Shown here: in pieces, positions 10,324-62,148 of the stretch | How positions within the stretch are numbered: position 1 is the first letter of the stretch | Layout of the letters: each line of letters begins with the position of its first letter | From: Candidatus Latescibacterota bacterium | GTDB lineage: Bacteria > Latescibacterota > UBA2968 > UBA8231 | Assembly: GCA_965197905.1 (NCBI GenBank) | Contig: CBDAOB010000004.1 | Coordinates: forward strand, 832,001-896,000 | Reading direction: 5' to 3' | Length of the DNA stretch: 64,000 nucleotides | Notes under the pieces: model-generated | The model's database searches: none | What the model was told of the DNA's origin: nothing | Seen by the model: only the letters and a program-made list of their open reading frames with translations | Made by a program: the position numbers and the translations under genes

Positions 10324-11974
10324 CTAGCCACGAACCCGCAGCTGCGCTGCGTCAAGCACGACGGCAGAAGAGGCGGACTCGCCGCGGTTCTGCACCGCCA
10401 CGTCCAGCTGATTCTCACCGCGACGGATCTGCCCGGCATCGAGCTTGCCCTGCAGCCACTGACCTTCCTTGGGGTTTCGGTGCGGATCGGCCGGTTCCAG
10501 CCCATCGACAGCTGCGCCGTTGAGTTTCACCGAGAAGTCGTCACCGGGAACCCAATCCCACAGATGCAGGCTGAAATCGATGCTGGCCGATCCGACATCC
10601 TCGCCCACCTGAAAACCCGCGGACACCGGTAGGGTTACCTCTCGGACCTCGGAGAAGCTATTGGGGCCTGCGAAACGCTCGATGCCGTAGAGCTTGTCTT
10701 TTCCGGCCATGGTTGCCGTTTCGCCGATCTCGCGCCACCATTGCGGCTCGCCGAAAGCGGGATTGAAGATGTAGAGCCCATCGGCGCCGGCGTTGAACAG
10801 ATTCGAGGCGGCACCGCGCCAGGCGGGGAGTGTGCCCTCCCACCCGTTGAACACAAGGATGAACGACGGTTTGCCGGCGCGTTCGACCTGCCCCCCGTAG
10901 AGGGTCTCTACCCACGACCTGGACTCTCTGTATTTGCCATCGCTGAGGCCGAGAAAGGCCCAGCTATCTCAGAAGCCCCAGGACACACAGGGGTAGACCG
11001 GGACCTCGTATTTGTGTCCCAGGGCGATGATGTCGCTGTAGGAACTACAAAACACCGAGTCGTAGTTGCCGCCGGGCATGAGCTGGTCGATCAATCCCTC
11101 CGCCAGCCACGTTTCCAGGTCGACCCCGACATGGATCGAATCGGCGAGGTTGAACGGCGTGTGCGCCGCCAGCAGCAGTGGGCGGCCGCGGCGGTTGGCC
11201 TGCTCGTCCGCCATGCGCCGGATGCGCCGCAACAGATCATTCATCAGCTCCAGATGCTCCGGCTCGACGGGATTCCCCTCCAGCGATTCGCGGAAGAACG
11301 GGAAATACTTGAAGAACTCCATGCCGATACAGTCGACGTCGTAGTTCTGCGCCACTTCCTGAATGATGGAAAAGATGTACTCGCGCACTTCGGGAACGGC
11401 AAAGTCCAACCCTGTCCAATTCGCTTTGGGGCTGCCGCCGTATTTATCCCAATCGCCCTCTTTGCCCATCATGAATTCGGGATGCTCCTGTTTGAACGGA
11501 GCCAGACCGTAGGTCCATCGACGCGAACCGGGCGGAAAGGCGTCGTGGACATCGTTCATGCGCAGGGCCCAGACCGCCTCCATGCCGTGCTCGTGGCTGA
11601 AATCAAGCTGTATTTGCAAGGTGTCGCGACCGTACTTTTCCACCAATTCCAGCGGGATCCCCTTGCCGTAGAATCCGCCCAACTTCGTATGGTGCGAAAA
11701 GGTCGTAGAATCCGCCCAACTTCGTATGGTGCGAAAAGGTCAGACCCGCCATGCAAGGGGAGAACCAGTTGCTGTCCACCTGGGTGCCGATCAAGGGCGT
11801 GCTGCGGGCATCGAGAAAATCTTGTACCAGATCTCCGGTGGCGCGCACCGTCAGCGCTTCGGAAACGTCATACTCATGTTCCACTCCGGAGCGCGCTTCG
11901 ATTACATCGTCGCCGTCGTTGTTGTAAATGATCCGACGTTTCCGCCAGCGCGCCTTCAGTCGGTCTGCATCCAC
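10324..11974 (-). pseudogene. GHL10-like TIM-barrel hydrolase, disrupted
   Basis: IIYNNDGDD, LRMNDVHD, LDFAVPEVRE and GADGLYIFN. A 37-bp tandem duplication causes a frameshift. TGA at 10969-10971 stands where the paralogue has TGG. Confidence 0.75.
11667..11740. repeat. Perfect 37-bp tandem duplication
   Basis: CGTAGAATCCGCCCAACTTCGTATGGTGCGAAAAGGT occurs twice (11667-11703, 11704-11740). Confidence 0.9.
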
Positions 11975-16949: not shown

Positions 16950-17705
16950 TCACGCGCTAGCCGCTTCCACGGCCGCCAAGGCACGCTCGCACAACGCCGC
17001 GACCGGACCCGTAGACCAGCCCAGCCAACCGTTGAGTGATCGCTCCTCTCCGAGCTCCAGGCGCTCCGCCATCGGACTACAGTGGACGCAATTCAAGGCC
17101 GGATCGGTATTTCCGCAGTATTCGTTGTGGGTCTCCCACGCCATTGCAGTCGCACCACCGGTGGTGGCTTCCACCGCGATCACCGACGGGCCGGTATCCG
17201 CATCGGGCATGCTCAGAAACGACGACTTGTCGGGGTCGTGATGGTCGTGGCACTCCGCCTTGATGCCGTCGGTGGCGACGTTCTTGAGATTTCCGCCGAC
17301 CCAGCAGTAGGTGCGGTCCCCCATCTGATCCAGGAAGGTGTTCGCTTCCGCTAGCTGATAGCAGGTTCCCACCGTGATCTGTTCCAATGCCCGGTCGGAG
17401 GTGTTTACCAAATCGTACCGCGGAACGAGATGATCCTCGCCGATCTCGACGACCGCGTCGAGCCGAAGAGTATCTCCATCGACCAGTCGTGAGCGCAGCA
17501 CCTTGCCATTCTCCTCGGTGCTCCATTCCATAGGACCGGAACGAGCCTGACGGTAGATCGAAGCATCCTTGTCGCCGGCCTTTTCCGGTATCCAGAGACG
17601 AAAGGCCTGAGAAGGGAACGCGTCCACGGAAATCTGCAGCACCGACATCTGTAGCGGCGGATAGAGCACCAGCGGCAACGTCCTAGGGGCGACGGAAACG
17701 TACAT
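16950..17705 (-). CDS. Hypothetical protein with chimeric N-terminus
   Basis: Coding-like ORF. Its first 7 codons are identical to the start of 20149..20943. Confidence 0.5.
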
Positions 17706-20148: not shown

Positions 20149-20943
20149 CTATTCCATGATCAGCGTTTCGAACCAGTCTCGTATCCTGATCTTGTCGGCC
20201 TCGTTACCGAAACCAAGGTTGTACCAACCCTGATAACCTCCGCTTTCGAGTCTTTCGAATAGCGACGGGAAGTCGATAGTGCCTTCACCAGGAACCAGAT
20301 GGATCTCATACTCGCCGGTGTTGTCGTTGACCCGAACCTGGCCGATGTTGTCGGTCCCGAAGGCGTCGAGGAAACTGGACCATCCTTGGGGTACGAGATG
20401 ACCATGGGCGACGTTGAAAGCCCATTTGAAGTTGGGGGCTTCGATCTCGTCGAGGAACCAGTGCATTTCCTCAACGTTGTGCGGGATATAATGAATTTCG
20501 GCGAGGTCGGGTTCTTTGTTGTGGTTCTCGAAGTAGACCATCTTGCCCAGCTTATCAGCCCGATCCACGAGTCTCTTGATGCGGTCGACCGCGGCCTGCC
20601 GGCGAAGCTCAGTGTCGCCGAAATGATAGCCGCCGTGACCGATGATCCAGCCGGCGCCGATCGCCTCGGCCAACTGCAGGTTCGCTTCCAGGTAATCATC
20701 GACGGCTTCCGACATGATGGGGACGTATTCCGCGTTGTTGATCGCTGAAACAGGATGGACACCTATCTGGAGCTCCGTTTCCTCCAGGAGGGCACGCGCC
20801 TTCGAAGCACGTGCTTTGCCAAATGAGGCGATGTCGTTCGGCGCATTGTCAGCGTTGAAATCGATGAATTTGAAGCCGTTGTCAGCACCCCACTCGATTG
20901 ACCTTTCGATGGGAAGGTCTTTGGGGGCGACGGAAACGTACAT
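20149..20943 (-). CDS. Sugar phosphate isomerase/epimerase (xylose isomerase-like TIM barrel)
   Basis: FENH, NVAH, HLVPGEGTIDF. Confidence 0.8.
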   Translation of the reverse strand: MYVSVAPKDLPIERSIEWGADNGFKFIDFNADNAPNDIASFGKARASKARALLEETELQIGVHPVSAINNAEYVPIMSEAVDDYLEANLQLAEAIGAGWIIGHGGYHFGDTELRRQAAVDRIKRLVDRADKLGKMVYFENHNKEPDLAEIHYIPHNVEEMHWFLDEIEAPNFKWAFNVAHGHLVPQGWSSFLDAFGTDNIGQVRVNDNTGEYEIHLVPGEGTIDFPSLFERLESGGYQGWYNLGFGNEADKIRIRDWFETLIME

Positions 20944-20949
20944 GACTCC

Positions 20950-22585
20950 TCACACCTGGTAGGCGAACACCTTGGCCTGGAACATCGTAAGTCTGATGGC
21001 CAGCATCTCGCCGAGGCGGGAGATGTCACTCCTGCCCTGCCAGGTGACCACCTGGTCGAGACAGTCGCCCGTCAAGCGGTCACATTCTTCAAAGGTGAAG
21101 CCGGGAAGTGGGTCCACGTCTCCGTGGAACATGGAGGGGATCATGTGCAGCAGCTCCACGCTGACCCAACCGCCAGGCTTGCAGCGGTAGTTCAGCCGCA
21201 GCTCGTCGTTGCGGCGGCTGATTGTGGGTATGGTGAATCGCCCCGCGGCGGCCGCCCTCTATGCCGCAGAAGCGATGGGGCTGCCACAGGGCCCATCCTG
21301 GCTTCATTGGTTGTCGCTGGGGGAATAAGGATGGCTCAAACCCCTCCTTGATGTTGTGCAGTCTCGAATACCCCATGTAGGGAACGCCCCAATAGCCATC
21401 CGGCAGCTGCACGACACCGGACAGCCAGCTCATAACCATGCAATCTTCCCCGCTGCCCGGGGGGCCGAGGTTTATGATGGCCTGTCGCTCCGGGCGGTAC
21501 CAAATAAGACCGTCGCGGCTGAAGGCTATCTGCACATCCATCTGACCTGTTATCTGGTGGAAGATGGGTACGGTCATGCCGTGGATGTCCGTGCGTCCTG
21601 GATAAGGGAAGTAGTTGTGGCTGTAGAAAGAGATGTCCAGGTCATCCTGGGAGTCCGGGTGCATCGTGAGCTTGGGTGCCGGCCAGTGGCGAAAATCCCT
21701 GGTTCTGGCGATTCCATTGGCCCTGCGGACGATCTCCGTCTCCTGCGCACCCGTGCCAATGCCCATCGGCTCCTCCGGGGGGAAGCCCTGGGGCTGCATG
21801 TAGGCGAAATAGGTACCACTCTCTGGCTCGTACCCGGCGGCGATGCCCCCGTTGACGGAGTAGTCTGCCAGGGGCTCCTCTATCCGCTTCCAGTGGAGGC
21901 GGTCTGGGGAGGTCCAGCCGACCATCCACCCCCGCAGCACCACCTTGCGGCCACGATACTCCAGCCCTTCGTACTGCATAGCGTCCCATCGCTTGACGGC
22001 CTCATTCCCCGGGCCTTCCGGACCCACATCGTCTAGCTGCTCCCACGTATCCGGGTCATACCAGTGGCCTTCGGCTCCCATTGCCTTGAAGCGCTCGTCA
22101 GGCGGCGCCGAGGGGTCTTCGAAGAATCCGGATGCGCCGATGGGAGGTTGGCCAAGGAGGTTGTTCTTCTTTGAGCCGTTGTACTCCACCTCACCTAGCT
22201 CGGGACGGATCCAGTGGTAGGCGTCATCACTGACGGCGTAACACACACGAGCCCCCGAAGTGTAGTAGAGCAGGTGATGCCTCCCATCTTCCTGCCACAT
22301 ATACTTCGCACCAACTCCTTCGGCCTCCCACTCCACTTCTCCGTCAAAAGTCATGGGAACTTTGGTGGCCTTCTCGATCTTAAGCTCGACGCCCACAGGC
22401 GCATCGTAGAGGTTGTATTCGCCCTGTCTAGAAACGCAACGGTTGCCGGGAAAGACGTCCACCACATCGATCAGTGGCGTCCAGGTGCCGGGATTGCTTC
22501 TCGGGCGCACCCAATCGCCTGGATAGAAACCTTTCCATTCGCCGGTGAGCTTTCTTTCTTTGACCATCTTTTCCCTTTCCGTCAT
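20950..22585 (-). CDS. Beta-propeller hydrolase-like protein, frameshift near 21255
   Basis: YAVSDDAYHW and IAFSRDGLIW. The C-terminal domain (LRLNY...AKVFAYQV) is in the 20950 frame. Confidence 0.65.
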
Positions 22586-22599
22586 GGTGTCGGACCTCC

Positions 22600-22656
22600 C
22601 TAGGCCAGCACGGCGAAGGAATAGTGCGACTGCCGCAGATAAAAGCGTTCGGCCAT
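22600..22656 (-). pseudogene. Collapsed beta-propeller paralogue: 18-aa in-frame mini-ORF MAERFYLRQSHYSFAVLA*
   Basis: AAGGAG RBS. Start MAE and end YSFAVLA* match 24371..25807; the last 24 bp are identical. Confidence 0.75.
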
Positions 22657-22662
22657 TGTTGG

Positions 22663-24296
22663 CTACTCCTTCCCACGAACCCGCAGCTGCGCTGCGTCAA
22701 GCACGACGGCAGACGAAGCGGACTCGCCGCGGTTCTGCACCGCCACGTCCAGCTGATTCTCACCGCGACGGATCTGTCTGGCATCGAGCTTGCCCTGCAG
22801 CCACTGACCTTCCTTGGGGTTGCGGTCCGGATCGGCCGGTTCCAGCCCCTCGACCGCTGCGCCGTTGAGTTTCACCGAGAAGTCGTCGCCGGGAACCCAA
22901 TCCCACAGATGCAGGCTGAAATCGATGCTGCGCGCACCGGCAGATCCGACATCCTCGCCCACCTGAAAACCTGCGGATACGGGGAGGGTAACCTCCGGGA
23001 CTTCGGTGAAGCTATTAGGGCCTGCAAAACGCTCGATTCCGTAGAGCCTGTCTTTTCCCGCAATAGTTGCCGGTTCGCCGATCTCGCGCCACCATTGCGG
23101 CTCGCCGAACGCGGGATTGAAGAGGTAGAGCCCATCGGCGCCGGCGTTGAACAGATTCGAGGCGGCACCGCGCCATGCGGCGAGTGTGCCCTCCCAGCTG
23201 TTGAACGTGAGGATAAACGATGGTTTGCCGGCGCGTTCGGGCTGCCCCCCGCAGAGGGTCTCTATCCACGACCCGAACTGTCTGTATTTGCCATCGCTGA
23301 GACCGAGAAAAGCCCAGCGATCCCAGAAGCCCCAGGACACACAGGGGTAGACCGGCACCTCGTATTTGTGTCCCAGGGCGATGATGTCGCTGTAGGAACT
23401 GCAAAACACCGACTCCAAGTTGCCGCCGGGCATGAGCTGGTCGATCAATCCCTCCGCTAGCCACGTTTCCAGGTCGACCCCGACATGGATCGAATCGGCG
23501 AGGTTGAACGGCGTATGCGCCGCCAGCAGCAGTGGGCGGCCGCGGCGGTTGGCCTGCGCTCATCCGCCATGCGCCGGATGCGCCGCAAAAGATCGTTCAT
23601 CAGCTCCAGATGCTCCGGCTCGACGGAATTTCCCTGCAGCGATTCGCGGAAGAATGGGAAGTACTTGAAGAACTCCATGCCGATGAGGTCCACGTCGCAG
23701 TTCTGCGCCACCTCTTCGATGATGCGGAAGATGTGCTCGCGCACCTCCGGCTTGGCGAAATCCAACCGGGTCCATTGTCCTCTCGGATGGTGTTGACCGT
23801 GCTTCTCCCAGTCGCCTTCCTCACCCATCAAACAGTCGGGATGATCTTGTTTGAACGGCGCTATCCCGTAGGTCCAGCGGCGGCTTCCAGGTGGAAAGGC
23901 GTCGTGAACATCGTTCATGCGCAGGCACCAGGCTGCTTCCATGCCGTGCTCGTGGCTGAAGTCCAGTTGGATCTGGAGGGTGTCGCGGCCATACTTCTCC
24001 ACCAGTTCCAGCGGGATCTCCTTGCCGTAGAACCCTCCGAGTTTGGTGTGGTGGGAAAAGGTGAGACCCGCCATGCAACTGGCGTACCAGTTGCTGTCCA
24101 CCTGCGAGCCAATCAGAGGCGTGCTGCGAGCATCGAGGAAATCCTGTAGCAGATCTCCGCTGGCGCGCACCGTCAGGCCTTCGGAAACATAATACTCCTG
24201 CTCCACTCCGGAGCGCGCTTCGATCGCATCGTCGCCGTCGTTGTTGTAGATGATCCGGCGTTGCCGCCAGCGCGCCTTCATCCGGTCTGCATCCAT
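22663..24296 (-). CDS. GHL10-like TIM-barrel hydrolase, 2-bp frameshift near 23557
   Basis: Close paralogue of 10324..11974 with an extra GC relative to that copy. Confidence 0.75.
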
Positions 24297-24370: not shown

Positions 24371-25807
24371 CTAGGCCAGCACGGCGAAGGAATAAAGCTG
24401 CGTGTGCTTCAGGCAAAAGCGCAGGCGCACCGGCTGCTCGACGTCCCGCAGCTGCTTGCCGCTTTTCCAGGTCACCGTATGGCGCAGGCCATCCGACGTG
24501 ATGGGCTGACACTCGTCTCGTGTCAAACCCTCGATCGGTTCCCCGTACAGGTTCAGTGCCTCCACCTGCAGCAATCCCTGGGAAGCATCGGCGTTCACTA
24601 CCAAGCCGCCGCCGCCGTCAAAACGTAGCCCCCTGGTCACCAGCATCCCTTCCTCGTCACCCGCATCGAGCGACACAAAACCATCCAGTCGCAGTTGCGC
24701 CAGACCGAGGAAATCCCCCACCATCTCGCATCCATCAATCGTTTTGCCAAGGAAATCTGCAATGTTTAAGTGCGGCACATTCGACCCCCGATAGTAGATC
24801 CAGATCTCGTCGTCCCGCACGAACGCCTTCTCTCCATAGACGCGTCTTGCATCCCACGTCCCCGGAGTTCCCCTCAGAAAGCACTGGCGGCTGCCCACCC
24901 GCGACCATTCCTTGCCGTCGCGACTGAAGGCCAGTTGCAAATCGAGGGTGTAGTTGAAGCCGGCGAGCGGTCGGGGATCGTCCGTGAACTCGTGGTAGAC
25001 GGTGAGAAACCCGACATAGCAACCCTGGTAAGGCAGCACGTGCATATAGTAAAAATCAATGCCGGGGCCGTCCCTGTCGTCAGGGGTGATGATCTCCTCC
25101 ACGCTCGTCCAATGCACGAAGTCGATACTCTCGCTGCGCCCGACGCGCCGCGTGGGAAAGGCCGAGGCGTCGGCGATCCCGCTCCACCGCTTTATGTGAT
25201 GGCCGTTGGGCCGCACGTACAGCACGTAGCGGCCATACCGCTCGTCCCAGAAAGGCAGGCTGAAGCCGTCGCCCGTTGGTTTCAGCACGGGATTGTCATC
25301 GTGGGGCGTCCACTGCAGTCCGTCCGGGGAGAAGGCGACGGCTACCCCGCCAGCGCCAGCGAAGTGCACCATCTTGTAGCGGCGTTCCGGGTCCGTCTCC
25401 GTGGTCTCTTTGAGGACCGGACCGCGCATGGGTGTGTGCAGCGCGATCAGATTGTTCGCCGCAGACCCATCGTATTCCACCAAACCCAGATCGGGACGGG
25501 TGAAGTTGACACCGTCCTCTGAAAGGGCATAGGCCAACGCCGGAACTCCTTCTGCGGTGGCTCGCGCACTATACCAGTACTTGTAGACCTTCTCCTCGCT
25601 ATCAAAAACCAGAGCCATGGGCACGATTCGCTGCCCCTCCCAGGGCTTCTCGATTTGGAAGACTGGATTTCGATCGTGTTTCACCGGCTGGTGGACAAAG
25701 CGCGAGATATTCTCCAGTCCGTCGATCAAATAATCGTCGACGAACAGCTGGCGTTCGTTGCCGATGTCCAGGACTACCGGCAGGCGGGGTACAGTGGGTT
25801 CGGCCAT
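24371..25807 (-). CDS. Beta-propeller glycoside-hydrolase-like protein
   Basis: RQLFVDD, SEDG/SPDG/SRDG boxes, RLDGFVSLDA. Confidence 0.7.
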   Translation of the reverse strand: MAEPTVPRLPVVLDIGNERQLFVDDYLIDGLENISRFVHQPVKHDRNPVFQIEKPWEGQRIVPMALVFDSEEKVYKYWYSARATAEGVPALAYALSEDGVNFTRPDLGLVEYDGSAANNLIALHTPMRGPVLKETTETDPERRYKMVHFAGAGGVAVAFSPDGLQWTPHDDNPVLKPTGDGFSLPFWDERYGRYVLYVRPNGHHIKRWSGIADASAFPTRRVGRSESIDFVHWTSVEEIITPDDRDGPGIDFYYMHVLPYQGCYVGFLTVYHEFTDDPRPLAGFNYTLDLQLAFSRDGKEWSRVGSRQCFLRGTPGTWDARRVYGEKAFVRDDEIWIYYRGSNVPHLNIADFLGKTIDGCEMVGDFLGLAQLRLDGFVSLDAGDEEGMLVTRGLRFDGGGGLVVNADASQGLLQVEALNLYGEPIEGLTRDECQPITSDGLRHTVTWKSGKQLRDVEQPVRLRFCLKHTQLYSFAVLA

Positions 25808-25957: not shown

Positions 25958-26440
25958 TTATAGGGCTGTAATCTTGGCTCGGGAGACTGGATCTGCCAGG
26001 TGTTTGTCAATTGTCTCCTTCTTTGCGAAAGACAGGAATTTGGTCTCATTGACTGCACAGTTAAGTGGGACCGCTTCGTCGCGGAGAGATTCTCCGAAAA
26101 GGAGGTACCAGAACCATTTCTTGAGTACCAAACTCATCACGCTTTTCGGTACTTCGCCAGATTTCCGCCATCGAGTGACCGTGCTGCGGTGAATCTGCAG
26201 GCAATCCGCCACATCAGAAAATGACTTGTCCGTCAGGTCACAAAGAAACTCCAATTCGTCCATCGAGAGGGTGGTGTCACTTCCACAGATTTCGTTGGCA
26301 ATCGCTCGGTGGATCCGGTAGATCTCCTCTTCTGAAATAGCCGCAGTGCCATCGGGCAGTGAGATCAGCCGTAGCTCTGGAACAGTCCAGGTTCGACCGG
26401 CGGCCTGGTATGGGTAGTTCTTTTTAGTCTTGGTCTTCAT
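25958..26440 (-). CDS. HTH-containing protein (antitoxin-like)
   Basis: SFSDVADCLQIHRSTVTRWRKSG Cro/XRE-like HTH. Confidence 0.65.
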   Translation of the reverse strand: MKTKTKKNYPYQAAGRTWTVPELRLISLPDGTAAISEEEIYRIHRAIANEICGSDTTLSMDELEFLCDLTDKSFSDVADCLQIHRSTVTRWRKSGEVPKSVMSLVLKKWFWYLLFGESLRDEAVPLNCAVNETKFLSFAKKETIDKHLADPVSRAKITAL

Positions 26441-26813
26441 CGTCGGTATCCTTGGCGAATTGGTTTGACCGGGCGTATGCCTCAGCTTCCTGCAGGGTTC
26501 TCAGACTGGGTGACGACTCAGTGCCATCATAGAAACAGAACAGAGAAGCGTACATCACCATATCGTCCTCTATATACAGTCGGAAACAGCCGTAGTATCC
26601 GGGTCCCCTGCCGTCAGGAGAAGGGGCCCATACCGCGATCTCAACGCGATCATCAACACGGTTAGCACGTCCGAGATAGACACCCTCTCGAACGAGGTAG
26701 GGCAGTTTCTGTCGAGCCAGCGCATACCTTGGCGTTTCCGGCTGGTGGTCGACGAACCGGTGGGCAGCGGAAAGCTGTTTCACGGCGTCCCACCAGACGT
26801 GCATTTCTCCCAT
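26424..26813 (-). CDS. Hypothetical protein, toxin-like position upstream of HTH gene
   Basis: 129 aa; overlaps the HTH gene by 17 bp. Confidence 0.5.
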   Translation of the reverse strand: MGEMHVWWDAVKQLSAAHRFVDHQPETPRYALARQKLPYLVREGVYLGRANRVDDRVEIAVWAPSPDGRGPGYYGCFRLYIEDDMVMYASLFCFYDGTESSPSLRTLQEAEAYARSNQFAKDTDDEDQD

Positions 26814-28518: not shown

Positions 28519-28645
28519 TCAAATCGTTCTCAAGCCCGCCACGTACAAGGCGTACACCTTCGCATCCTCCGGCCTGAGCCCGTCGCCGTAGTTCACCTGC
28601 AAGCAGAAGGTCTCCCCGCCAGAGAGCGCGCGCTCCGACCATCTT
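28519..28645 (-). pseudogene. 3' remnant of a third copy of the 27016/29282 gene
   Basis: GETFCLQVNYGDGLRPEDAKVYALYVAG. Confidence 0.75.
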
Positions 28646-28708
28646 GGACTCTGATTGATCTGAATTTTGCACACGTCTGCAAAATTGGGCAGCCTCGCGC
28701 GACCGGGC

Positions 28709-28972
28709 TTAGCGCTTCCGACTCGAATCGGTCGTTAGAGTACGCTTGTATTTCTCAACATATGAATCGAGGAGTTTTCGAATCATTTTCTGATAGGGCG
28801 TATTGTGCTCCTCCGCCTTCTCTTTGAAAAATTGGACACTCGACTTGCTAAGTGAGATTGTCACCTTTACGGTTTCATCTTTGAACGCGAGCTCATCGGG
28901 TGAAGGGAGAAAATCGCCGACAACCTCGAGGTCCCCAAGGGCTTCGTCACTGTACTTTATTTTCGCTCTCAT
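28709..28972 (-). CDS. BrnA/CopG-like antitoxin
   Basis: DFLPSPDEL...KVTISLSKSSVQFFK...PYQKMIRKLLDSY. Confidence 0.7.
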   Translation of the reverse strand: MRAKIKYSDEALGDLEVVGDFLPSPDELAFKDETVKVTISLSKSSVQFFKEKAEEHNTPYQKMIRKLLDSYVEKYKRTLTTDSSRKR

Positions 28973-28974
28973 GG

Positions 28975-29205
28975 ATTCCCCTGCCTTTCCTCCAATATCC
29001 GGCGCCAATGATGCGGATTACGTTGCGGCGGTAAGTAAAATGCCAGAGCCGGCCTTGCCAAAACGATAGAATCGTTCCTCCTTCGCCGTACTGTGGGTCA
29101 GGTCTTTGGCTATGACACGCTTGGGATCAGCGAATGCATATTGTGCTTCCGCGAACGCAATGCCGTGCTTCTTCTGGTTCTCAACGTCCTTCTCGGCGTC
29201 CCACA
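28975..29205 (-). pseudogene. BrnT-family toxin remnant
   Basis: WDAEKDVENQKKHGIAFAEAQYAFADP...IRIIGAGYW. The start is missing and there is an internal deletion/frameshift. Confidence 0.7.
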
Positions 29206-31232: not shown

Positions 31233-31290
31233 TTTAAACATCACCTGCGGTCAAAATCATCAAAGGCCGTCAGGGCATGTAATGTTATGT
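31233..31290 (-). other. Degenerate attC-like site
   Basis: ACATAAC overlaps the stop codon; ACATGCCCTGACGG...CCGCAGGTGATGT arms. R' spacing is non-canonical. Confidence 0.4.
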
Positions 31291-32790
31291 GCCCTTCGTC
31301 TCGCTCTCCTCTGCTGTTGCAAGTTTTAGATTGATCTCGGCTTGCTCCAGACCGGGCGTGAGTTCAAGTGCGGTCTTGAGGAGCCTAATCGACTCATCCC
31401 TATTGCCTTGCTGCAGAAGCACGAGCGCCTTGTTGTTGAGAGCCGCGGCCTTCGCATTTGGAGGGGCGGACTCGAGACCTATCACCTTGTCGAACTCTTT
31501 GATGGCCCAATCCAGCTCTCCCATGTGAAGAAGGGACAAGCCGCTCTGGATCGTGATGCTTGGAGGGCCCGACACTAGCTGTCCTTGTTCGATCGTCCCT
31601 TGGGTTGGTACTCTCACCGTCGGCATTGTCGACATCACGTCAAATTCGCGGCCCACCTTGTGCGCGGCAGCGATGCGAATCGCGATCAGTTGGCCAATCA
31701 CAGGACGCTCGTCGACATGGTCCAACAAGTCGCTGTTGATGCTGTCTTGCGCATACCTAAGAAGAGCTCGATGAAGCAGGTTTTGAACGGCCATCTCGCG
31801 CGCTTCAGACTGCCTTTGCCCGCCGAGTGTCCGAGCATGCTCGGCCAGATTGTCGAAGAGGCGGGTGTCGCCAAAGAGGAGATATTCAGCCGCTGATGGT
31901 GATAGCTTCGCCAGTTTTACAATTGCGGCAACAAACTCCGGGTCTGAGCCGCAGTGGAACCTTGTGGCAACTAAGGCCCCTAGGTTCTCATCGAGCATCG
32001 CTCGGTAGTAATCAGAGTCCAGCAGCTGAGCTTTATTGGAGCTTCGTAGCATGCGGCTGGCAAGCCGGAGAAACCCGTCAGTCGATGACGTCGGGGACGC
32101 TTCCGACCCTTCTTGCACAAGTCCAGCCGCACGCAATCGAGAAAGGCTGCTCTCATCTTCGACTTGCATTCCTTGAAGAATCGAGCCAAGTAGCTCTAGG
32201 TCTGGCGGAGTCAGGTCTGTCTTGCTCGTCTCAGAAAGCGTGTCTTCGATCCTCGAGTCCTGGGCGCGCTTTCGAACCCAAGTAGCGAGGGCCTCTTCAA
32301 TCTCCTCCTCGAGTTTCTCGTTGCTCTGGAAGTCTTTGTGGTAGACCCCTTTTGTGCCAATCTCGTTTTTGAACTCAAGGACTCTTGCGAGTTGCTCATC
32401 GGGAGCCCCTGCAAGATCTGGAGGAGGTGGACGGAAATACATCATAACCTCTGGCGGGGGTTCCTCAATGCCGCGACGGGAAACAATCCTCTCGTATTCC
32501 TCAAGCGTCCCGCTTTCGACAAGGCCAGTGTCGCTACCAAAGCGTACGTGGAGAATGCCGATGAAGGCATGCGCCCTGTCGACCTCGGCGTTGATTACTT
32601 CCTGTGCGCGATCTGCCATGCCGACGGGTACATTCTCCCATCCTCGTGGGACTATGGTGATCCCCAAGTCTCTCGAGACCAGACGGTCGATCCGCAGGAC
32701 AGCTCGACGTGCAGCGTCTCTCGCGTCCGCTACATCGCTGGGTGACGCGACAAAAACGAGGAGTTCTCTGAGTAGTCGCTCGTCCGCCAT
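31285..32790 (-). CDS. DUF4062 (TIR/NDT-like) domain + C-terminal TPR protein
   Basis: VFVASPSDV, FIGILHVRFG, SGTLEEYE; TPR (AAALNNKALVLLQQG). Own GAGGAG RBS and ATG at 32790. Confidence 0.7.
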   Translation of the reverse strand: MADERLLRELLVFVASPSDVADARDAARRAVLRIDRLVSRDLGITIVPRGWENVPVGMADRAQEVINAEVDRAHAFIGILHVRFGSDTGLVESGTLEEYERIVSRRGIEEPPPEVMMYFRPPPPDLAGAPDEQLARVLEFKNEIGTKGVYHKDFQSNEKLEEEIEEALATWVRKRAQDSRIEDTLSETSKTDLTPPDLELLGSILQGMQVEDESSLSRLRAAGLVQEGSEASPTSSTDGFLRLASRMLRSSNKAQLLDSDYYRAMLDENLGALVATRFHCGSDPEFVAAIVKLAKLSPSAAEYLLFGDTRLFDNLAEHARTLGGQRQSEAREMAVQNLLHRALLRYAQDSINSDLLDHVDERPVIGQLIAIRIAAAHKVGREFDVMSTMPTVRVPTQGTIEQGQLVSGPPSITIQSGLSLLHMGELDWAIKEFDKVIGLESAPPNAKAAALNNKALVLLQQGNRDESIRLLKTALELTPGLEQAEINLKLATAEESETKGT

Positions 32791-32806
32791 TGGCTCCTCT
32801 TCAGTC

Positions 32807-32897
32807 ACATGACGATTGAACTCAGCGCCGCGCGCAAGAGTGTCCGCTGCAGTGACGCCGTTCACCTTTGCACGGTCTGCTCGATTGCTTGTTAGGG
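32807..32897 (-). other. Degenerate attC-like site
   Basis: CCCTAAC...ATCGAGCAGAC...CTGCAGCGGAC...CGCTGAG...GTCATGT, between a stop codon and the next start. Confidence 0.45.
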
Positions 32898-32909
32898 CTC
32901 GCTGATCCC

Positions 32910-33999
32910 CTATGACACCGTTGATCTCACTTTGCGAATGATGAACGCCCCAAATCCACGCTGATAGTCGGACCTTATCGGCTCCAAAGTTAAGAGCGCC
33001 CAATGTGCTGCCGCCGGCAGCGGTGATAGTCGCCTCGCCACCTGCCTCAGCGAGGAATTCATTGACAAGACCGTTGATGTGGAGGCCGTGTGTCCACCAT
33101 TCACGCCCAAAGTTGATGGCGTTGTTCGTGCCGATCACGAACCACGGCCATCGCTCCATCCAAGCCTCAGTCATCTCGGTGTCGGGAATCCGCTCAGGTT
33201 CGGATGCTACTGTGTAGTAAGTCAGTACCAGACCAGTACCCACCCCGTAGGCTATCATCGTGTCACCGATTGCGACCCCTGCAGGTCGTCGTTTCGAAAA
33301 GTGGAGTTCGTCAGGGCTTGCTGAGAAATCCGTTCCCTCAATGATGGGATCATCGCTCACCCCGATCGGTTTGAGCCATATCGTGGAAGATATCTCCTCG
33401 GCAAGCGGCTTGCCACGTGACTCCATCACCTCGTTAAGGTTCAGCTCGATATTCTCAGAAGGTGTTGGCTCTCCGTGTTTCTGCCGATAGTCATCGAGAG
33501 CTTCTAGCATCACGAGCGCATCGTCGACTGATAGGTCAAGATAGTCGGTTGCGTCGGCAATCGTGGACTCAAGGGTCGTCAACGTGTCGGTGTCCTCAAT
33601 CAGAACGCCCCACTCGCGATTCTTGTGGAGTCCAGACTCGGTGAAATTCGCAGAGGTTATTACCGCAGCGAATACGCGGGCACTGTGGCGAAATATATAG
33701 ACCTTTCCATGTAACCGATTGTTGATCGAGACTCGGAGGTTAACATGCCCCAATGCTTGGGCCAAATCCATAAGGGATACGATCGCATCTAGCTTCCGAA
33801 ATTGCTCCTTAGTCCGCGGCTTGAGAGTCGTAATCACGTGAAGATCACGGAGCTGGGTGAGATCGAAACCGCCTAACAGTTCTTTCATATCGGACGCCAG
33901 GAACGGCGACATGAGTGTCATTGATGTCGCTCTCTCGACGAGTCCTGCAAGTTGAGGAAAATGCCCCTCTGTCGCGGTTGAGTTCGTGACGATTCTCAT
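32910..33999 (-). CDS. PLD-domain (NgoFVII/PLDc-type) nuclease with C-terminal EVE/PUA-like domain; frameshift near 32960
   Basis: MSPFL and LHGKVYIF...ITSANFT...NREWG. The likely true stop is in the 32910 frame. The C-terminal domain call is inference. Confidence 0.7.
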
Positions 34000-34012
34000 T
34001 TTTCCCTTGTTG

Positions 34013-34065
34013 TCCGAACGCGGAGTTGAGCGGTGTAACACGTCCGCTCGAACGACTGGTTAGGT
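34013..34065 (-). other. attC-like recombination site
   Basis: ACCTAAC-N5-GTT(C)GAGCGG...CCGCTCAAC-N5-GTTCGGA, with one extrahelical base in L''. Confidence 0.7.
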
Positions 34066-34090
34066 GGCACCTTCACCTGCGACACTATTC

Positions 34091-34885
34091 CTAGGTCGTC
34101 TTACTATTGATGTAATGCAATAGCGTATGGATAGAATCCAAAGTCAGATCCGCCTCCGGTTTGTCGAGCAGCTGTTCATTCGGATGGGCCAGTGACGCCC
34201 GATTTCGTAAGGGGTTCAATGTATCAATAACAGTCGACAAGGCACGTAGCAAACGCGTAATGTCGTCCGACCTCGGCCCATCAGCTTGCAGGGACGGATG
34301 TGAATCTCGAAGTGCTCGAAATAACCGCGTCACACTTGCTTCCTCAGCGATCTCGATATCGGCATTAACGCAAAGCTCCCGGAGATATCCGTGAAATGCG
34401 GTGTGCGCTCGGTCGACGCCACTTGTAGAGCCGCGCCCTGATATTAGGTGTCGAGCATCGGCTAGGGCTTCCTCAACAGTTCGGGATGTGATTCCCAGGT
34501 GCGGTTCCGCCACAGGTGCTATTGAGCCATCACCCAAGGAAGCCCCTATAGCGATAAATCGAACATCTATAGGGCAAATTTCGTTAAGTGCTGACGAGAT
34601 CTGTTTAAACTCAAAACGGCTAGTCGGCTCGGAATACTTATCTACGAGCTTTGCGTATGTATCGATCGGGAGTTCCGTGTAAAGAACCACAAACTCGTCG
34701 CCGAAGAAATTCTCGCCCTCTCGAAGTTCGAATTGCATGGATTCGAACATCTCTGATGCTTCGAAATTGCCGCGCGCTTTTAACAATTGCAGCACGCCGT
34801 TTCGAAACGATTTCCAATTATTCGAAAATGCCAGATCTCCGATACTGTAATCTTGAGCTCCACTACCCGAGACTAGCGTGAACAT
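34091..34885 (-). CDS. Abortive infection Abi_C (HEPN-like) domain protein
   Basis: C-terminal LRNRASLAHPN motif preceded by DRAHTAFHGYL. Confidence 0.7.
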   Translation of the reverse strand: MFTLVSGSGAQDYSIGDLAFSNNWKSFRNGVLQLLKARGNFEASEMFESMQFELREGENFFGDEFVVLYTELPIDTYAKLVDKYSEPTSRFEFKQISSALNEICPIDVRFIAIGASLGDGSIAPVAEPHLGITSRTVEEALADARHLISGRGSTSGVDRAHTAFHGYLRELCVNADIEIAEEASVTRLFRALRDSHPSLQADGPRSDDITRLLRALSTVIDTLNPLRNRASLAHPNEQLLDKPEADLTLDSIHTLLHYINSKTT

Positions 34886-34911
34886 CGGTTAATTCCTGAT
34901 GTGACCGCGCC

Positions 34912-35029
34912 ACCTAACGCAGTGATGACCTGCGCGGAACGACCAATCGTCTTTGAGCCCGTGGTTGCAGTCGAGCATCCCAGCAGCTTCAACCTCAGTG
35001 TCAATAGTCTGGTCCATCCCCTGTCATGC
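34912..35029 (-). other. attC-like recombination site
   Basis: GCATGAC...GATG(G)ACC...GGTCATC-N5-GTTAGGT (canonical R'). Confidence 0.6.
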
Positions 35030-35086
35030 AATGTAGGACGCCCCGCGGGAGTGTCTCTGTGCTCGGAGGATCCGTGGCAGGCCGTT

Positions 35087-35650
35087 CTATCCGTCTTCTG
35101 CCTTCGGAAGGCCGTCGCTCATCTTCGACTTTTCTGACTTTGTCAGGCTGAACACCTGCTTGAACAGCGTCTCGAGCTTCTCTACGGCCTCCCGGGAGAA
35201 CATGCCGACCAAGCCTGCTAGACCTGCCAGCCCGTAAATGTTCAGCTTCTCTACCTCTACGTTGGTCGTCAGGATTCCACCTCTGATGATCAGGTAGACG
35301 ATGACTGAGAGCGCCGAGCTGATAACTGGCCGTAGCATGTACCACCACGCCCACCGACTGACCAGAGCGTTGTTCCCGACATACCTGATGAAGGAACTCC
35401 CCGTCTCAACAAAACTGCCCAGTGATCCCATTAGCAGTATTATCAAGAGGTAGCTGACTTCGGCGTCCACCTGCCATCGGTCTGGCATGGCACCATTGTT
35501 TGAAGTGCCTTGCTTGGGCCACAGATGCACAAGGCAGTAGAGCGATGCTGCGTACACAACAAGGAGATAGGTACCGACCAGTAAAATCGTAACCCAATGG
35601 TTGGTGGGAGGATTTTCCGTATTGCCGTCGTTACTTGGTCGATCTTTCAT
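35087..35650 (-). CDS. Multi-pass membrane protein of unknown function
   Basis: About 4 hydrophobic segments; GSLGSF...YVGN...WY.LRP...RGG. GGAGG RBS. Confidence 0.65.
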   Translation of the reverse strand: MKDRPSNDGNTENPPTNHWVTILLVGTYLLVVYAASLYCLVHLWPKQGTSNNGAMPDRWQVDAEVSYLLIILLMGSLGSFVETGSSFIRYVGNNALVSRWAWWYMLRPVISSALSVIVYLIIRGGILTTNVEVEKLNIYGLAGLAGLVGMFSREAVEKLETLFKQVFSLTKSEKSKMSDGLPKAEDG

Positions 35651-35760
35651 GTGGGACCTCCATCTCGCCTACGCATCCGCCGTTGACGCACCCGTCAGGC
35701 TATAGCCTCCCTCTCGGCCGGCATCGCATTCACCCGTTCCCCACTTCGAACGAGGCAAGG

Positions 35761-36333
35761 TCATCCGGTCGTTGAGTCCATTCTCCGTTCCCAGTGTCTC
35801 ATATGTACCCTTGGATCTACTGCGTCCACGAGGCGTGCTCGGGCATGGACAGTCACCAGACCTATGACCAAAGCAAGGAAACACCATACAAGCGAGTCCA
35901 TGTCAAGGCCCTCGAGGCGGACAATGGGAAGCTGCGGAGTCACCGTTGCAAGCCCGACAAGAGATGCTACGTTGAGACCTACGGAGCTCAGGACAAAGGC
36001 CGAAGCTGGAGTCCCGAGACTGCGGTAGGTGTGAGTTGATTGATATCTAGACCACTCCGCCTCCCAGCCCAGCCCGGGAACGTGTGGTTCGATGAACAAC
36101 TGGATGTACCGACCGACTCGGAACATCCCGTGGTACAACCCCACCACGTGGTACATGCAGGATATCACTATGAAAGGAACGACGAGAAAGACCCATCGGT
36201 TGTCTTGATCGGCCGCGTACGCAAGTCCCGCACTGCTGGCCACCAGCATCAATCCCTGCACTTGCAGAACCATTGTTTGCTTGCTCACGATCTCTTGGCG
36301 TAGGGCCTGATACTCGGCCAGTCTAGCGTCCAT
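35761..36333 (-). CDS. Multi-pass membrane protein of unknown function
   Basis: EYQALRQEI followed by about 4 hydrophobic segments. Confidence 0.6.
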   Translation of the reverse strand: MDARLAEYQALRQEIVSKQTMVLQVQGLMLVASSAGLAYAADQDNRWVFLVVPFIVISCMYHVVGLYHGMFRVGRYIQLFIEPHVPGLGWEAEWSRYQSTHTYRSLGTPASAFVLSSVGLNVASLVGLATVTPQLPIVRLEGLDMDSLVWCFLALVIGLVTVHARARLVDAVDPRVHMRHWERRMDSTTG

Positions 36334-36690
36334 TTCTTCCAAGCGTCACCTATCCATCAGCGATCACCTCGCCGCTCCAAGCCTCGGTTGGGCTTCCTTG
36401 TGTATGGGTGTCCTGCCAACTGGCCCCCACGCATGACTAGTGATTGTGCTGCGTAAATCCCGGCACTATCCTGTCGTAGCCGCCAGAGATGCCTGCACAA
36501 CTAACCTGGTTGAATAAATGCGCAATGGCATATACGAATACATTACCGAATTCGGCATTCCTCAACAAGCAGCGTTTCTCCGCGCGAAGGTTTCGTCATC
36601 GTCGTATTATCTGCCGTTGAGTCCAAGAGTAGAATTCACACAAGTCCTTGATGGCCTGCTTGTAGGGTCATAGCTCTCCGAAGAATCGTA

Positions 36691-37221
36691 ATGACCACTA
36701 CCGACGTCGACATCCGACCCCTCGAACTCTCCGACGCCCCCGCCGTCCAGCGCTACGCCTCCGACCAACGGGTTGCCCGCACCACCACTATCCCTCGACC
36801 CTACCCCGAAGACGGCGGCGAGCAATTCGTCAAGAAATGCCTAGGTGCCCACGAACAAGGCCGGCTGTTTCCGTTCGCCATCCTTGCCGACGAGGAAATG
36901 ATCGGTGTACTTGAACTGAAGGTGGTAAAGGGCCAGTACCGCACCGTCCAGTGCGACTACGGCATCGCCTCTTCCCACTGGGGCAAGGGTATTACGACCC
37001 GGGCCGTCGGCCTCGCCCTGACCTACGCGTTCCAGGAACTCGACATGGCGACCGTGAACTCGGGTTGTCTCGCGCGCAATCCCGCGTCGGCCCGCGTTTT
37101 GGAAAAGAACGGATTCACGGAGATCGGCCAGTTCATCTACAACTCACCCAAATTCAAGGATGAGCCCGCTCGTCGTTTCCGTCTCACCAAACAGGAATGG
37201 CTGCAACGAAACCCGGAGTAG
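36691..37221 (+). CDS. GNAT N-acetyltransferase (RimJ/RimL type)
   Basis: HWGKGITT, NPASARVLEKNGF. Confidence 0.85.
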   Translation: MTTTDVDIRPLELSDAPAVQRYASDQRVARTTTIPRPYPEDGGEQFVKKCLGAHEQGRLFPFAILADEEMIGVLELKVVKGQYRTVQCDYGIASSHWGKGITTRAVGLALTYAFQELDMATVNSGCLARNPASARVLEKNGFTEIGQFIYNSPKFKDEPARRFRLTKQEWLQRNPE

Positions 37222-37228
37222 TAGAAAG

Positions 37229-37762
37229 ATGCTGACCATCCGCCCGATCGATCCCGAAGAGGATCGTGACACCCTGCTCGAACTGCACTGTATGGGCAAC
37301 TACGACAGCGAAACGCCGTGGGCGCGGACGATCTCCTACGACGACTACCGCGAGAAATGGCTGAGCACGGAGCAGACCGATTCCTTCCTGACCCATCTGT
37401 CCCAATCCATGGAGGATGAGCGCACCATCGCCTCCATCTGGGAGGAGGGCGGTCTCGTGGTCGGTTTCGTCTGGGTTGCTATTCGAGAGGTGGAGGGTTA
37501 CGACGTGACCATTGCGGAGATCAACGACATCGCCGTGAGCGAATCCCATCGCCGCCGGGGCATCGGCACCGAGATCCTCGAGCACGTAGAAGCGCTGGCC
37601 AGGGAACGCGGCGCCGATCTGTTGCGCTCCGATACCGGCATCGAGAACCTCGCCTCCGACCGGCTCCATACCAAGGCCGGCTTCAAACCGATCCGCACCG
37701 AATACGAGAAGGTGCTGACGCCGCCGCCCATGGCGAGAAGCGTGTGCAACCCCTCCTCATAG
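37229..37762 (+). CDS. GNAT N-acetyltransferase
   Basis: VSESHRRRGIG, ENLASDRLHTKAGF. Confidence 0.85.
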   Translation: MLTIRPIDPEEDRDTLLELHCMGNYDSETPWARTISYDDYREKWLSTEQTDSFLTHLSQSMEDERTIASIWEEGGLVVGFVWVAIREVEGYDVTIAEINDIAVSESHRRRGIGTEILEHVEALARERGADLLRSDTGIENLASDRLHTKAGFKPIRTEYEKVLTPPPMARSVCNPSS

Positions 37763-37769
37763 CCGCGTG

Positions 37770-38818
37770 ACGCCGCCGTGCCCTCCAATCCTACGACGCC
37801 CTGCTCGACGGCATTGACGAGATCATCGACGCCCAGAAGGATCTCGGCACCCAGGCGCGTGGCCGCCGCCTCGCCCGCAGCTACTGGGAGATCGGCGACG
37901 CCATCCACGTCCACCTGCTCGCCAACGAAGGCAAATCGACCTACGGCGAGCGTTTCTTCACCCGCCTTTCAAATGATCTAAACTTAGACCAGTCATTAGT
38001 TTATAACATGATCCGTTTTCGTCGGTGCCAAATTTGGAATCAATTCCAAAATTGAGCTGGACCCATTACGTCCAGATCATCTCCCTCAAGTCGGGTCGAC
38101 AGCGCGAATTCTACGAACGCGCCGCCGCCGAATCGAGCTGGACCGTGCGCGAGCTCAAGGAACAAATGAAGGCCGACCTTTTCGCCGATGCTCGCCAGGT
38201 ACGTTCCGTCGCCTTCCGACCCGGCGGCGAGCACCAAGGGTGCGCCTCACGCCGCGAAAAGGCGAGCTCTACACCTACCGCCTGATTCCGTCACTGCCTG
38301 GACAGGCGCAAGATCTCGCCGTCGATCTGGGATTTGACAACCATTGGCTAGGACCGATCCGGGATATCACCGCTCCCCGGGTCGGCATGATCGTTGCGGC
38401 CGAAAAAAGCAGAGGCGGCAGCCAGCCGCGCTACCACTTCTCCGTCAACCGGCGCCGCGGCCGCAAACTCTACACCGTCAAAGCCCTCTGCGAGCGTGTC
38501 ATCGACGGCGACACCATCCTCGCCCGCATCGATCAGGGGTTCCACATGTGGCATGCCGCGCGCTTGCGGCTGCGCGGCATCGACACCCCCGAGCTCTACT
38601 CCAGCGCCGGCCGCCGGGCGCGCGAATTCGTGCAGGCAACAATGGATCAGTGCGACTTCGTCGTCATCTGCACCGCTAGCCGCGACAAATACGGCCGTTA
38701 TCTCACCGACCTGTTCTACCTGCCGGGTGCGACCCACCCCGCCGACGTACTGCGCGATGGATTCTTCCTCAACCTTGAGTTGATTGATCGCGGACACGCG
38801 CGTCCATACGCTCCGTAG
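37770..38818 (+). pseudogene. DUF1016 (YhcG) N-terminal domain fused to thermonuclease (SNase) domain, frameshifted
   Basis: YWEIGD...YG, LSWTHY...REFYE...WTVREL; then VIDGDT...RLRGIDTPE...DKYGRYL. Confidence 0.7.
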
Positions 38819-38984
38819 AAAAAGCGTCGAAGCCGCGCAGTGCGGGATGGATTTCGGTTGAACGGGATATAGGAGCTGGGGCACAGCGGCACAGGTACAC
38901 TTCACCCACGCGTGCGTGACAAAATCAGGCGTAGGCGAATTCCGCTTGGAGATGTGGCCGCGCCGATGCGATGGGTGGCGCGAC

Positions 38985-39078
38985 CACCGGCGTGGGGTGC
39001 CAACACCCCGTTATAGCGAATCAGATTCAGCCGCGGCGGCGGTACCAAAGCGGCGAGTTTCTCGATGAGTTCGAGGGG
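38985..39078 (-). mobile_element. IS91-family (Y2) transposase remnant
   Basis: PLELIEKLAALVPPPRLNLIRYNGVLAP. Confidence 0.7.
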
Positions 39079-39264
39079 GGAAGCATCACGTGGGTGCTGC
39101 CGGGGCTGGTCGTCGGTCGCGCGGGTGTTGGAAACAACGATACGGCCGCGATGTATCCACTGTAATGGTGGCGTCTCCTTGCCCGTGTGGCATTTTGGGG
39201 TGCTCGCTAACACCCAGGATACGCCGCCATTACACGACTTTCGGTTATACCCCCGGTCAGCAAG

Positions 39265-40289
39265 TTACGGGATTCTCACTCCCCTTCCTGATTGATAGAC
39301 AACAGCCTGAAATAGCGGCGAGTCCCAGATGTTGTCGAAATCTGGATCGACGGTCGCAAGGTAACGACAATATTCCTTTTGCTCAATTGACTTCGCCAAG
39401 CACGCCAATGCTTCCTGCAGGCTGTGCATCTTCGAATGGGCACACGCAAGGTTGTAATTGAACATGTGAAAATCATTCTTCTCTTTAAGCCGCTCAAAGA
39501 CGTCGATCGCTTCTTGTGGTCGATCAAGCTTAATGAGCGCGACGCCTTGTTCCTTTCGCAGTAGCTCGTGCTGAGGGTATAAATCTAATCCTCTTATACA
39601 CACACATCAAGACATTCCAGGTAGCACTGATGTTGTTCAATGCCCTCATCTCCGGCCTCACCCCTCAAGAAATACATATCAGCCAATGCAAAAAAGTCTT
39701 CGGCGGTCGGATTCTTCTTCTTAAGTTTGTTTTTGTAGCGTTTTATGCGCTCATCAAATTCAGCTATTGATAAAGATTTCTTGTCTGTGTATTTCCTCAG
39801 TAGTGTGGCTCGATGCTTGCTGATTGCTCCAAAGCGAATCAGTTGGGCGTGCATTTCCGTTCTCTCGTTGCTGCTTTCTTTGTGTAGGTGCTTGAATATT
39901 GCGTTTTCCATGGCGCTGGTAATTCTCTTGCAAACAGCCGGCGTTAGCTGCTTCCTGTATTTTATTGCCTGGTAGTTGGATATCATGCCAGGAATGCGTT
40001 GCGAGGTTGGAATAACAATTAGTAAAGGTTTTCCAAGGGCTACGACCTGCCCGGTTTCATACATCACATTAGGGTTGCAGTCTTCTAGGAAGGAAATAGA
40101 AACCAGACACCTGCGAATAGTGGCGTGGATCTCATCAAGCCAAATCTCACCTCCCTGGATTTTCATATAGGTTCCAAGGGAGAATTTTGGGAATGCGGTT
40201 CTGATTGCAGGACCCAACTCATTCGCAATGAACGTCTTGAACTTAACTTCATCAGGCATAGAAACGAAAATTTTTCGATGTTCTAGCAT
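39265..40289 (-). CDS. Nucleoside-deoxyribosyltransferase/TIR-like + TPR protein, frameshifted at ~39600
   Basis: IFVSMP and NPNVMYETG...LGKPL; C-terminal YNLACAHS...DPDFDNIW TPR end. The break lies in a short AC repeat. AT-rich. Confidence 0.65.
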
Positions 40290-60442: not shown

Positions 60443-60830
60443 ATGGAGAGATTACTGGTGGTAAGGCATGGGGAGAGAGAAGACACAGATCCTGCTTGGC
60501 GGAGTACGGCGGCAAGACCGTTTGATCCTGGATTGACCGAGAAGGGCCGATCGCAGGCAATGCGATTGGCGCAACGATTGGCAGCGGACAAGATCACTCG
60601 GATCTACTCGTCACCCTACCTCAGAGTGGTGGAACTCGGCCCCGGCGAATAGGCAGATTGCTCCGGTGAGGTGTACTTGCCGCAACATGACCTACCATAG
60701 CCGAAGTGACGAAGTCACAGACCGGCCTCGGCGAGATGTTATGCCCGGACGTTCCGTCGGCTCCGGAGATACTTCCCGTGGCCCAGTTGCAGGAACGCTT
60801 CACATTTGGATGCGTGACCGCTGCCGGTGC
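60443..60830 (+). pseudogene. Histidine phosphatase (PGM-like) family, disrupted
   Basis: VRHGER...GLTEKG...YSSPYLR. It is interrupted around 60635-60715 and resumes TGLGEML. Confidence 0.7.
60658..60702. repeat. 45-bp direct repeat, copy 1 (copy 2 at 62079..62123)
   Basis: TTGCTC(C/A)GGTGAGGTGTACTTGCCGCAACATGACCTACCATAGCC, one mismatch between copies. Confidence 0.85.
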
Positions 60831-61871: not shown

Positions 61872-62148
61872 TGGTGCCGGAAGAAGAGCGCGCTGGCAAT
61901 CTACTCGATCAGCCTCTGTAGGTTGGACGTTGTCAGAAGGTCTGCTTTGGACGTGTGTCTTCGAGGAAGGGGCCTCGAGCGTGTCCTGCAGTTGACGCGG
62001 ACATTCAGCTGGACTGGGTAGGAGGGCCGAGTAACGCGTTGCTGAGCTATCAGCTGCCTGGAAGCTTAAAAACTCCTGTTGCTCAGGTGAGGTGTACTTG
62101 CCGCAACATGACCTACCATAGCCCGATCAGATCGTAAGAGCCCCTTGT

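Follow-up and report, generated by a model that had tools for sequence, protein, structure and literature searches.

Engineered non-polar in-frame deletion scars of the Keio-type design leave the start codon, the last codons and the stop codon of a removed gene in frame. The 18-codon stub presented here is like these scars in retaining its start, last codons and stop in frame within an operon, and unlike them in being natural, in carrying no recombinase scar and in showing no sign that non-polarity underlies its persistence. A natural point of comparison is provided by the pseudogene remnants of Kuo and Ochman 2010 (PMC2916853), where the case is made that pseudogenes in bacteria disappear more quickly than neutrality would predict. 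There, as here, a disrupted redundant gene is mostly deleted and a short relic stays in place, whereas our stub keeps both termini fused in frame and belongs to a paralogue-rich 6.7-Mb genome rather than to Salmonella. Danneels et al. 2018 (PMC6054270) ties a selection-free 3n bias of deletions to the spacing of microhomologies and attributes microhomology-flanked 3n deletions to alternative end joining, the bias being shown there for deletions of ≤15 nt, not of kilobase size, and mostly in Ku-less genomes. Our system resembles theirs in its excess of junction microhomology, in k-mers that favour 3n spacing and in a single-codon loss within a pseudogene, and differs from it in having deletions of 0.1-3 kb, Ku and LigD, and blunt ends at half of the junctions. 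Natural start-to-stop in-frame gene stubs were not described as a class in the literature searched, in which subscription papers were thinly covered.

The stub lies in a 64,000-nt window (G000:C4:832001-896000), the whole stretch of DNA analysed here, of a 6.69-Mb genome with 58% GC that is assembled in 5 long contigs without N. Read on the minus strand from 22656 to 22600, it translates as MAERFYLRQSHYSFAVLA followed by a stop. Its two segments correspond by homology to opposite ends of a single full-length gene family: 10 nt at its start and 24 nt at its end are identical to the 478-aa paralogue P0001 (25807→24371), and the 24-nt 3' match (E=2e-6) is confined to these two places in the 76 family genomes. 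Global alignment to P0001 yields a 1,377-nt deletion and a second loss of 3 nt, the Leu codon before YSF, for a net loss of 1,380 nt, which bears out the sequence-only reading of this ORF as the two ends of a paralogue of 24371..25807 with about 1.4 kb removed in frame. The main junction carries 1 nt of microhomology when compared with P0001; microhomology of at least 2 nt, a mark of alternative end joining, is absent there. The RFYLRQSH segment is the same as P0001 at 17 of 23 nt (6/23 differing, plus the gap) and is nearer to the allele P0002 (RFYLKQTQL), so that the parent of the stub would have been a sister copy and not P0001 itself.

The surrounding signals are compact. The stub ATG stands 6 nt past the stop of the GHL10-like gene (24296→22663), and 14 nt separate the end of the stub from the next ATG (22585), that of a propeller-like gene. 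The AAGGAG motif at 22671-22666, 9 nt upstream of the stub ATG, is a putative ribosome-binding site of the stub, and a GGAGG (22599-22595) comes right after its stop. A scan for promoters and terminators returned no signal exceeding those of shuffled sequences; from the terminator scan came a small hairpin of 5 pairs and a 3-nt loop in the diverged part of the stub (22625-22637, minus strand), which is probably due to chance. An atlas search gave matches only to clusters without a name. The features discussed below are collected in Table 1.

Table 1. Coordinates, within the window, of the stub, its neighbours and the related scars.
Feature	Position	Strand	Remarks
18-codon remnant ORF of P0001-type gene	22600..22656	-	MAE joined to RFYLRQSH, then YSFAVLA and stop
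5' stub	22647..22656	-	10 nt; exact match to the first bases of P0001 and of the longer 5' stubs of G015, G034 and G002
3' stub	22600..22646	-	last 24 nt identical to P0001; one Leu codon missing
Shine-Dalgarno-like AAGGAG	22666..22671	-	in last codons of upstream gene; spacer shared with G015 and G034
Upstream GHL10-like gene	22663..24296	-	2-nt insertion (+2) at ~23556 splits gene
P0001, intact 478-aa paralogue	24371..25807	-	family like GH130/GH32 five-bladed propellers
GGAGG, ATG and 6 in-frame codons ahead of conserved start 22567	22568..22599	-	
Downstream propeller-like gene	20950..22585	-	+1 frameshift at ~21257
Borrowed start	20924..20947	-	24 nt identical to those that open gene 17705→16950; joined in frame to 20943→20149
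Second in-frame collapse, GHL10-like, 32 aa	14704..14802	-	next gene convergent
Third in-frame collapse, propeller-like, 99 aa	8394..8693	-	next gene convergent
One-sided 3' stub of 28488→27016 gene family	28537..28617	-	same left junction in G002

The P0001-type family to which the stub traces is very large, with more than 100 tblastn hits in the genome that holds the window (G000) and 189 matches in the same-genus genome G002. A profile of 60 homologues matches beta-1,2-mannobiose phosphorylase 7fip (E=8e-14) and beta-fructosidases, and 15 of the 60 family members match PF00251 at E≤0.01, while P0001 alone matches no Pfam family. By profile, the family is similar to the GH130/GH32/GH117 five-bladed beta-propeller glycoside hydrolases and phosphorylases, and the parent of the stub appears to resemble a propeller-like glycoside-hydrolase gene of the GH130/GH32 type.

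Comparison with relatives provides a history for the slot between the two neighbouring genes. In both G015 and G034, a GHL10-like gene of 88% identity is followed by the same spacer and then by ~127 nt of a P0001-type 5' end, and because these elements are shared we conclude that the slot truly once held a P0001-type gene. This synteny bears out the earlier claim of a collapsed gene that kept its ribosome-binding site, start and stop in an old operon slot. The 23-nt spacer plus start is identical in G000, G015 and G034, these being the 3 that hold it among 76 family genomes, and the 5' pieces of G015 and G034 each break off at a different junction of their own. G002 carries a 57-nt 5' stub joined out of frame to the 3' end of a glyoxalase gene, a full orthologue being absent from that genome, and in contigs of run X5 a P0001-type 5' piece runs into the beginning of the downstream gene at two different sites, 22575 and 22579. 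Taken as sequence comparisons, these cases indicate that the slot of the collapsed gene has been broken repeatedly and differently across relatives. The longer allele proposed as a check at the same spot in related genomes was recovered as a ~127-nt 5' part in G015 and G034 and at full length in none of the 75 other family genomes. A full-length allele with the RFYLRQSH end was not found either, a metagenome scan yielding only relatives of 31-35% identity. The exact 18-codon mini allele is absent from the 75 other family genomes and from a scan of a genome collection that may leave out near genomes, and among the 76 genomes the stub is present in G000 only.

The GHL10-like and propeller genes are 88-97% identical at the DNA level between genomes assigned to different genera (G000, G015 and G034), which points to recent transfer of the two genes. 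The window itself looks like a duplicated module undergoing reciprocal loss: the P0001 type exists as an intact copy and a stub, the GHL10-like type as two split copies and a stub, and the 251-aa gene as an intact copy at 17705 with a 24-nt start stub at 20947.

We consider the stub to be, more probably than not, an end-joining deletion scar in a redundant paralogue whose frame was kept by chance, that is, a product of ordinary gene decay. A second P0001-type copy would have sat behind the GHL10-like gene, as the synteny indicates, and would have been redundant given that an intact copy lies 1.7 kb upstream. Break repair, most likely by Ku-LigD NHEJ or by microhomology-mediated alternative end joining, would then have produced the 1,377-nt internal deletion and fused codon 3 with the terminal codons, and a further codon would have been lost. 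The survival of the ends is explained by breakpoints that fall within densely packed genes and so leave short stubs behind. Retention of the frame would be a matter of chance, at about 1 in 3 and somewhat more where codon-register microhomologies guide the join, a bias that does not explain the stub junction because only 1 nt of microhomology is present there. The 18-aa peptide would have no function of its own and would probably be translated, harmlessly. Against this neutral reading stands the fact that the stub requires two 3n losses by chance.

The junctions of other deletions speak for this account. Blunt joins make up 20 of the 40 curated junctions, which fits the presence of Ku and LigD genes side by side in G000, G002 and G015 (3 of 5 genomes searched), and gene presence and junction shape together suggest end joining as the repair pathway. 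Microhomology of at least 5 nt occurs at 7/40 junctions against an expectation of 0.65% (p=8e-9), and junctions with at least 2 nt of microhomology are in frame in 10/16 cases as compared with 8/24 of those with at most 1 nt (Fisher p=0.07). Within genes, the share of identical k-mers at 3n spacing climbs from 0.36 for k=1 to 0.69 for k=8. Because junction microhomology is enriched and matching words prefer 3n spacing, a fair null for the in-frame share lies above 1/3, and the observed microhomologies alone predict 14.9 of 40 deletions in frame without selection.

Measured against such a null, the census of deletions offers little departure from chance. G000 was compared with 2.4 of the 6.7 Mb of G002, in regions chosen as paralogue-rich, and gave 211 collinear indels of at least 60 nt, 54 of them with both breakpoints in one intact gene, so that deletion scars are a frequent feature of this bacterium. 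Single-gene indels were in frame in 24/54 cases before curation and in 18/40 after it, all sizes included (p=0.083); curated internal deletions of at least 100 nt were in frame in 13/32 (p=0.24), and collapses that keep both ends of a gene in 15/33 (p=0.10), or 12/30 without the three of the window (p=0.28). These shares all lie slightly above 1/3, which speaks mildly against the neutral reading. Among deletions that take at least 50% of a gene, 3/10 are in frame. The excess over 1/3 that had been proposed as a count test of a recurring route was not seen overall, the counts for internal deletions and for both-ends-kept collapses reaching or nearly reaching the outcome named in advance as refuting it; a post hoc excess is seen among the shortest remnants, as described below. 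The both-ends-kept set consists of 30 cases kept from 38 aligned candidates, together with three later cases. Candidate rows (25 + 50) had been cleared of duplicates, self-hits and natural domain variants (BMC, FlgD, pentapeptide and Fn3-like), and 8 of the 38 candidates were dropped for a missing 3' end or a weak or ambiguous alignment, both frames being represented among those whose main junction could be read. The frame of each case was taken from its main junction; two cases counted as out of frame there are net zero after small indels and are not clean ORFs. Frameshifts affect about 10% of the genes shared by G000 and G002 in either direction (95/981 and 91/976). On inspection the breakpoints had seemed biased towards the 5' end, which a KS test did not bear out (p=0.32). 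A first within-genome census, with 179/198 in frame, was rejected as dominated by repeat proteins, and junctions between different genes (25/33 in phase in G000) were rejected as mostly shared motifs in intact paralogues.

The length of the remnants leaves room for selection to act after the deletion, a reading that we regard as unlikely. Deletions would be random, with out-of-frame scars undergoing further deletion or being purged, and short in-frame stubs that run from start to stop would persist; being out of frame would be costly because the stop is lost and because read-through in a genome of 58% GC yields long aberrant peptides. The stub would then represent an end state that is tolerated on account of its tidy start and stop and not for any peptide function. 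Consistent with this, remnants of ≤211 nt are in frame in 9/13 cases (p=0.009 vs 1/3), or 7/11 without those of the window (p=0.04), as compared with 6/20 longer remnants (Fisher p=0.04), although the length cut was picked post hoc with the data in view, two discovery cases are counted, hand curation had removed 8/38 candidates, and the protein-level search masked in-frame remnants of at least 600 nt, which inflates the contrast between short and long. Overall, the remnants that are in frame are also shorter than the others (Mann-Whitney p=0.008, or p=0.023 when the three of the window are left out). Both losses in the stub are 3n, and in a collapsed glyoxalase gene of G015 (L017:9625→9467) an out-of-frame 302-nt loss and a 1-nt loss together leave a 52-codon ORF that returns to the native stop. 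The faster-than-neutral removal of pseudogenes argued in PMC2916853 points the same way. However, the three cases found after the idea had been formed comprise one in frame and two out of frame at the main junction, one of the two regaining its native stop.

We therefore offer only as a tentative and rather doubtful generalisation a gene-loss sieve in Latescibacterota, in which short in-frame stubs would be a stable end state, out-of-frame scars would be eroded or restored to frame, and start stubs would sometimes be reused as N-termini, as at 20943. If such a sieve operates, translated 'ghost' ORFs of 15-70 aa would form a hidden layer in genomes, preserving a record of lost genes and revealing what out-of-frame translation costs in nature. 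Should the in-frame excess among short stubs hold, it would furnish a countable natural test of the cost of out-of-frame remnants, a standing question in pseudogene extinction dynamics. Caution is warranted in that such stubs get called as small proteins, as the 32-aa and 99-aa stubs of the window have been in public protein collections, and in that striking in-frame cases are an ascertained subset.

The sequence-only reading had favoured a recurring route, or selection, that keeps ribosome-binding site, start, stop and frame and so spares downstream genes from polarity in the manner of a 'non-polar knockout', and this we now judge very unlikely. The stub does have a same-strand neighbour on either side, at 6 and 14 nt, and a seemingly intact isomerase gene follows later in the same run, but the overall in-frame counts fit the null and the other collapses do not share this setting. 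Three in-frame collapses had been claimed in the window, and two more were indeed found, which we take to be those meant: 14802→14704, and 8693→8394 with 1,062 nt lost at a 7-nt microhomology. Both face convergent genes and have no same-strand gene after them. In the wider set, a same-strand gene follows within 60 nt after 3/14 in-frame and 4/16 out-of-frame remnants (p=1.0). Both neighbours of the stub are frameshifted, a point tempered by the chance that these frameshifts postdate the collapse; reinitiation could also soften polarity. The orthologues of the downstream gene have their start at the codon corresponding to 22567 (four full-length with MVKERK, one with MANERI, and P0192 likewise), and since this conserved start lies 32 nt past the stub's stop, a tight coupling to it cannot be taken for granted. 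Furthermore, other lineages broke the same slot without keeping the 3' end, and conservation of the stub together with an intact downstream gene was not seen across the 76 genomes, the stub occurring in G000 only and next to a frameshifted gene.

That the stub is an assembly or consensus artefact, two similar sequences having been collapsed, is highly improbable even though no record crosses its junction among the matches listed from four contig-only runs and the exact mini allele was found neither in the 75 other family genomes nor in the collection scan, because no repeat links the two ends (1-nt microhomology) on which they could collapse, the neighbouring scar at 28537-28617 is common to G002 and the neighbouring frameshift recurs, as the aberrant tail of the downstream gene, in a protein from another assembly, with the long contigs free of N and a 3' stub that differs from P0001 at 6/23 nt plus a gap, and so is no copy of it, also speaking against collapse.

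The genes next to the deletion scar bear further traces of rearrangement. The 22568-22599 extension of the downstream gene is possibly a stub of another lost gene; a source gene was sought and none found. Beyond it, the sugar-phosphate isomerase gene 20943→20149 begins with MYVSVAP joined to KDLP, whereas 5/5 homologues listed begin with MS(D/N)RFGFDAPKDLP. Its first 24 nt are the native start of the 251-aa gene (17705→16950), and the fusion is in frame at AP codons common to both genes. The start belongs to the 17705 gene family and was donated to the 20943 gene.

Elsewhere in the window, two scars are not in-frame collapses. At 28617-28537 the 3' stub of the 28488→27016 family joins a short element with an inverted repeat (28537-28703, minus strand); the junction is also found in G002 (L016:13773-13949), where the element occurs elsewhere at L016:16117-16195. 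At 25957-25824 (minus strand) lies a 134-nt 5' stub of one toxin-antitoxin-like gene. Small toxin-antitoxin-like gene pairs, presumably BrnT/BrnA-like, stand between the large paralogues at 25958-26813 and 28709-29204 (minus strand), and in G002 comparable pairs lie between the tandem copies of the GHL10 gene. The second GHL10-like copy of the window (11967→10324, minus strand) is broken by a 37-nt insertion at 11700-11736 relative to the G002 copies and is missing 9 nt at ~10586.

Some genes carry two or three separate internal deletions, namely at G000:C4:985265-985782 and, in G002, in the L094 region (block 5.98 Mb) and the L134 region (3.69 Mb). Their remaining pieces are 92-100% identical to the intact copy, and multiple deletions in such near-identical copies suggest that deletions pile up fast or arise together. 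Between the paralogue clusters, 31285-40289 (minus strand) holds a defence-like gene island with a PLD/NgoFVII-type domain accompanied by DUF4062 and TPR, and with Abi_C. Finally, a 45-nt direct repeat, identical at 44/45 positions, occurs at 60658-60702 and 62079-62123, 1.4 kb apart and flanking small ORFs.
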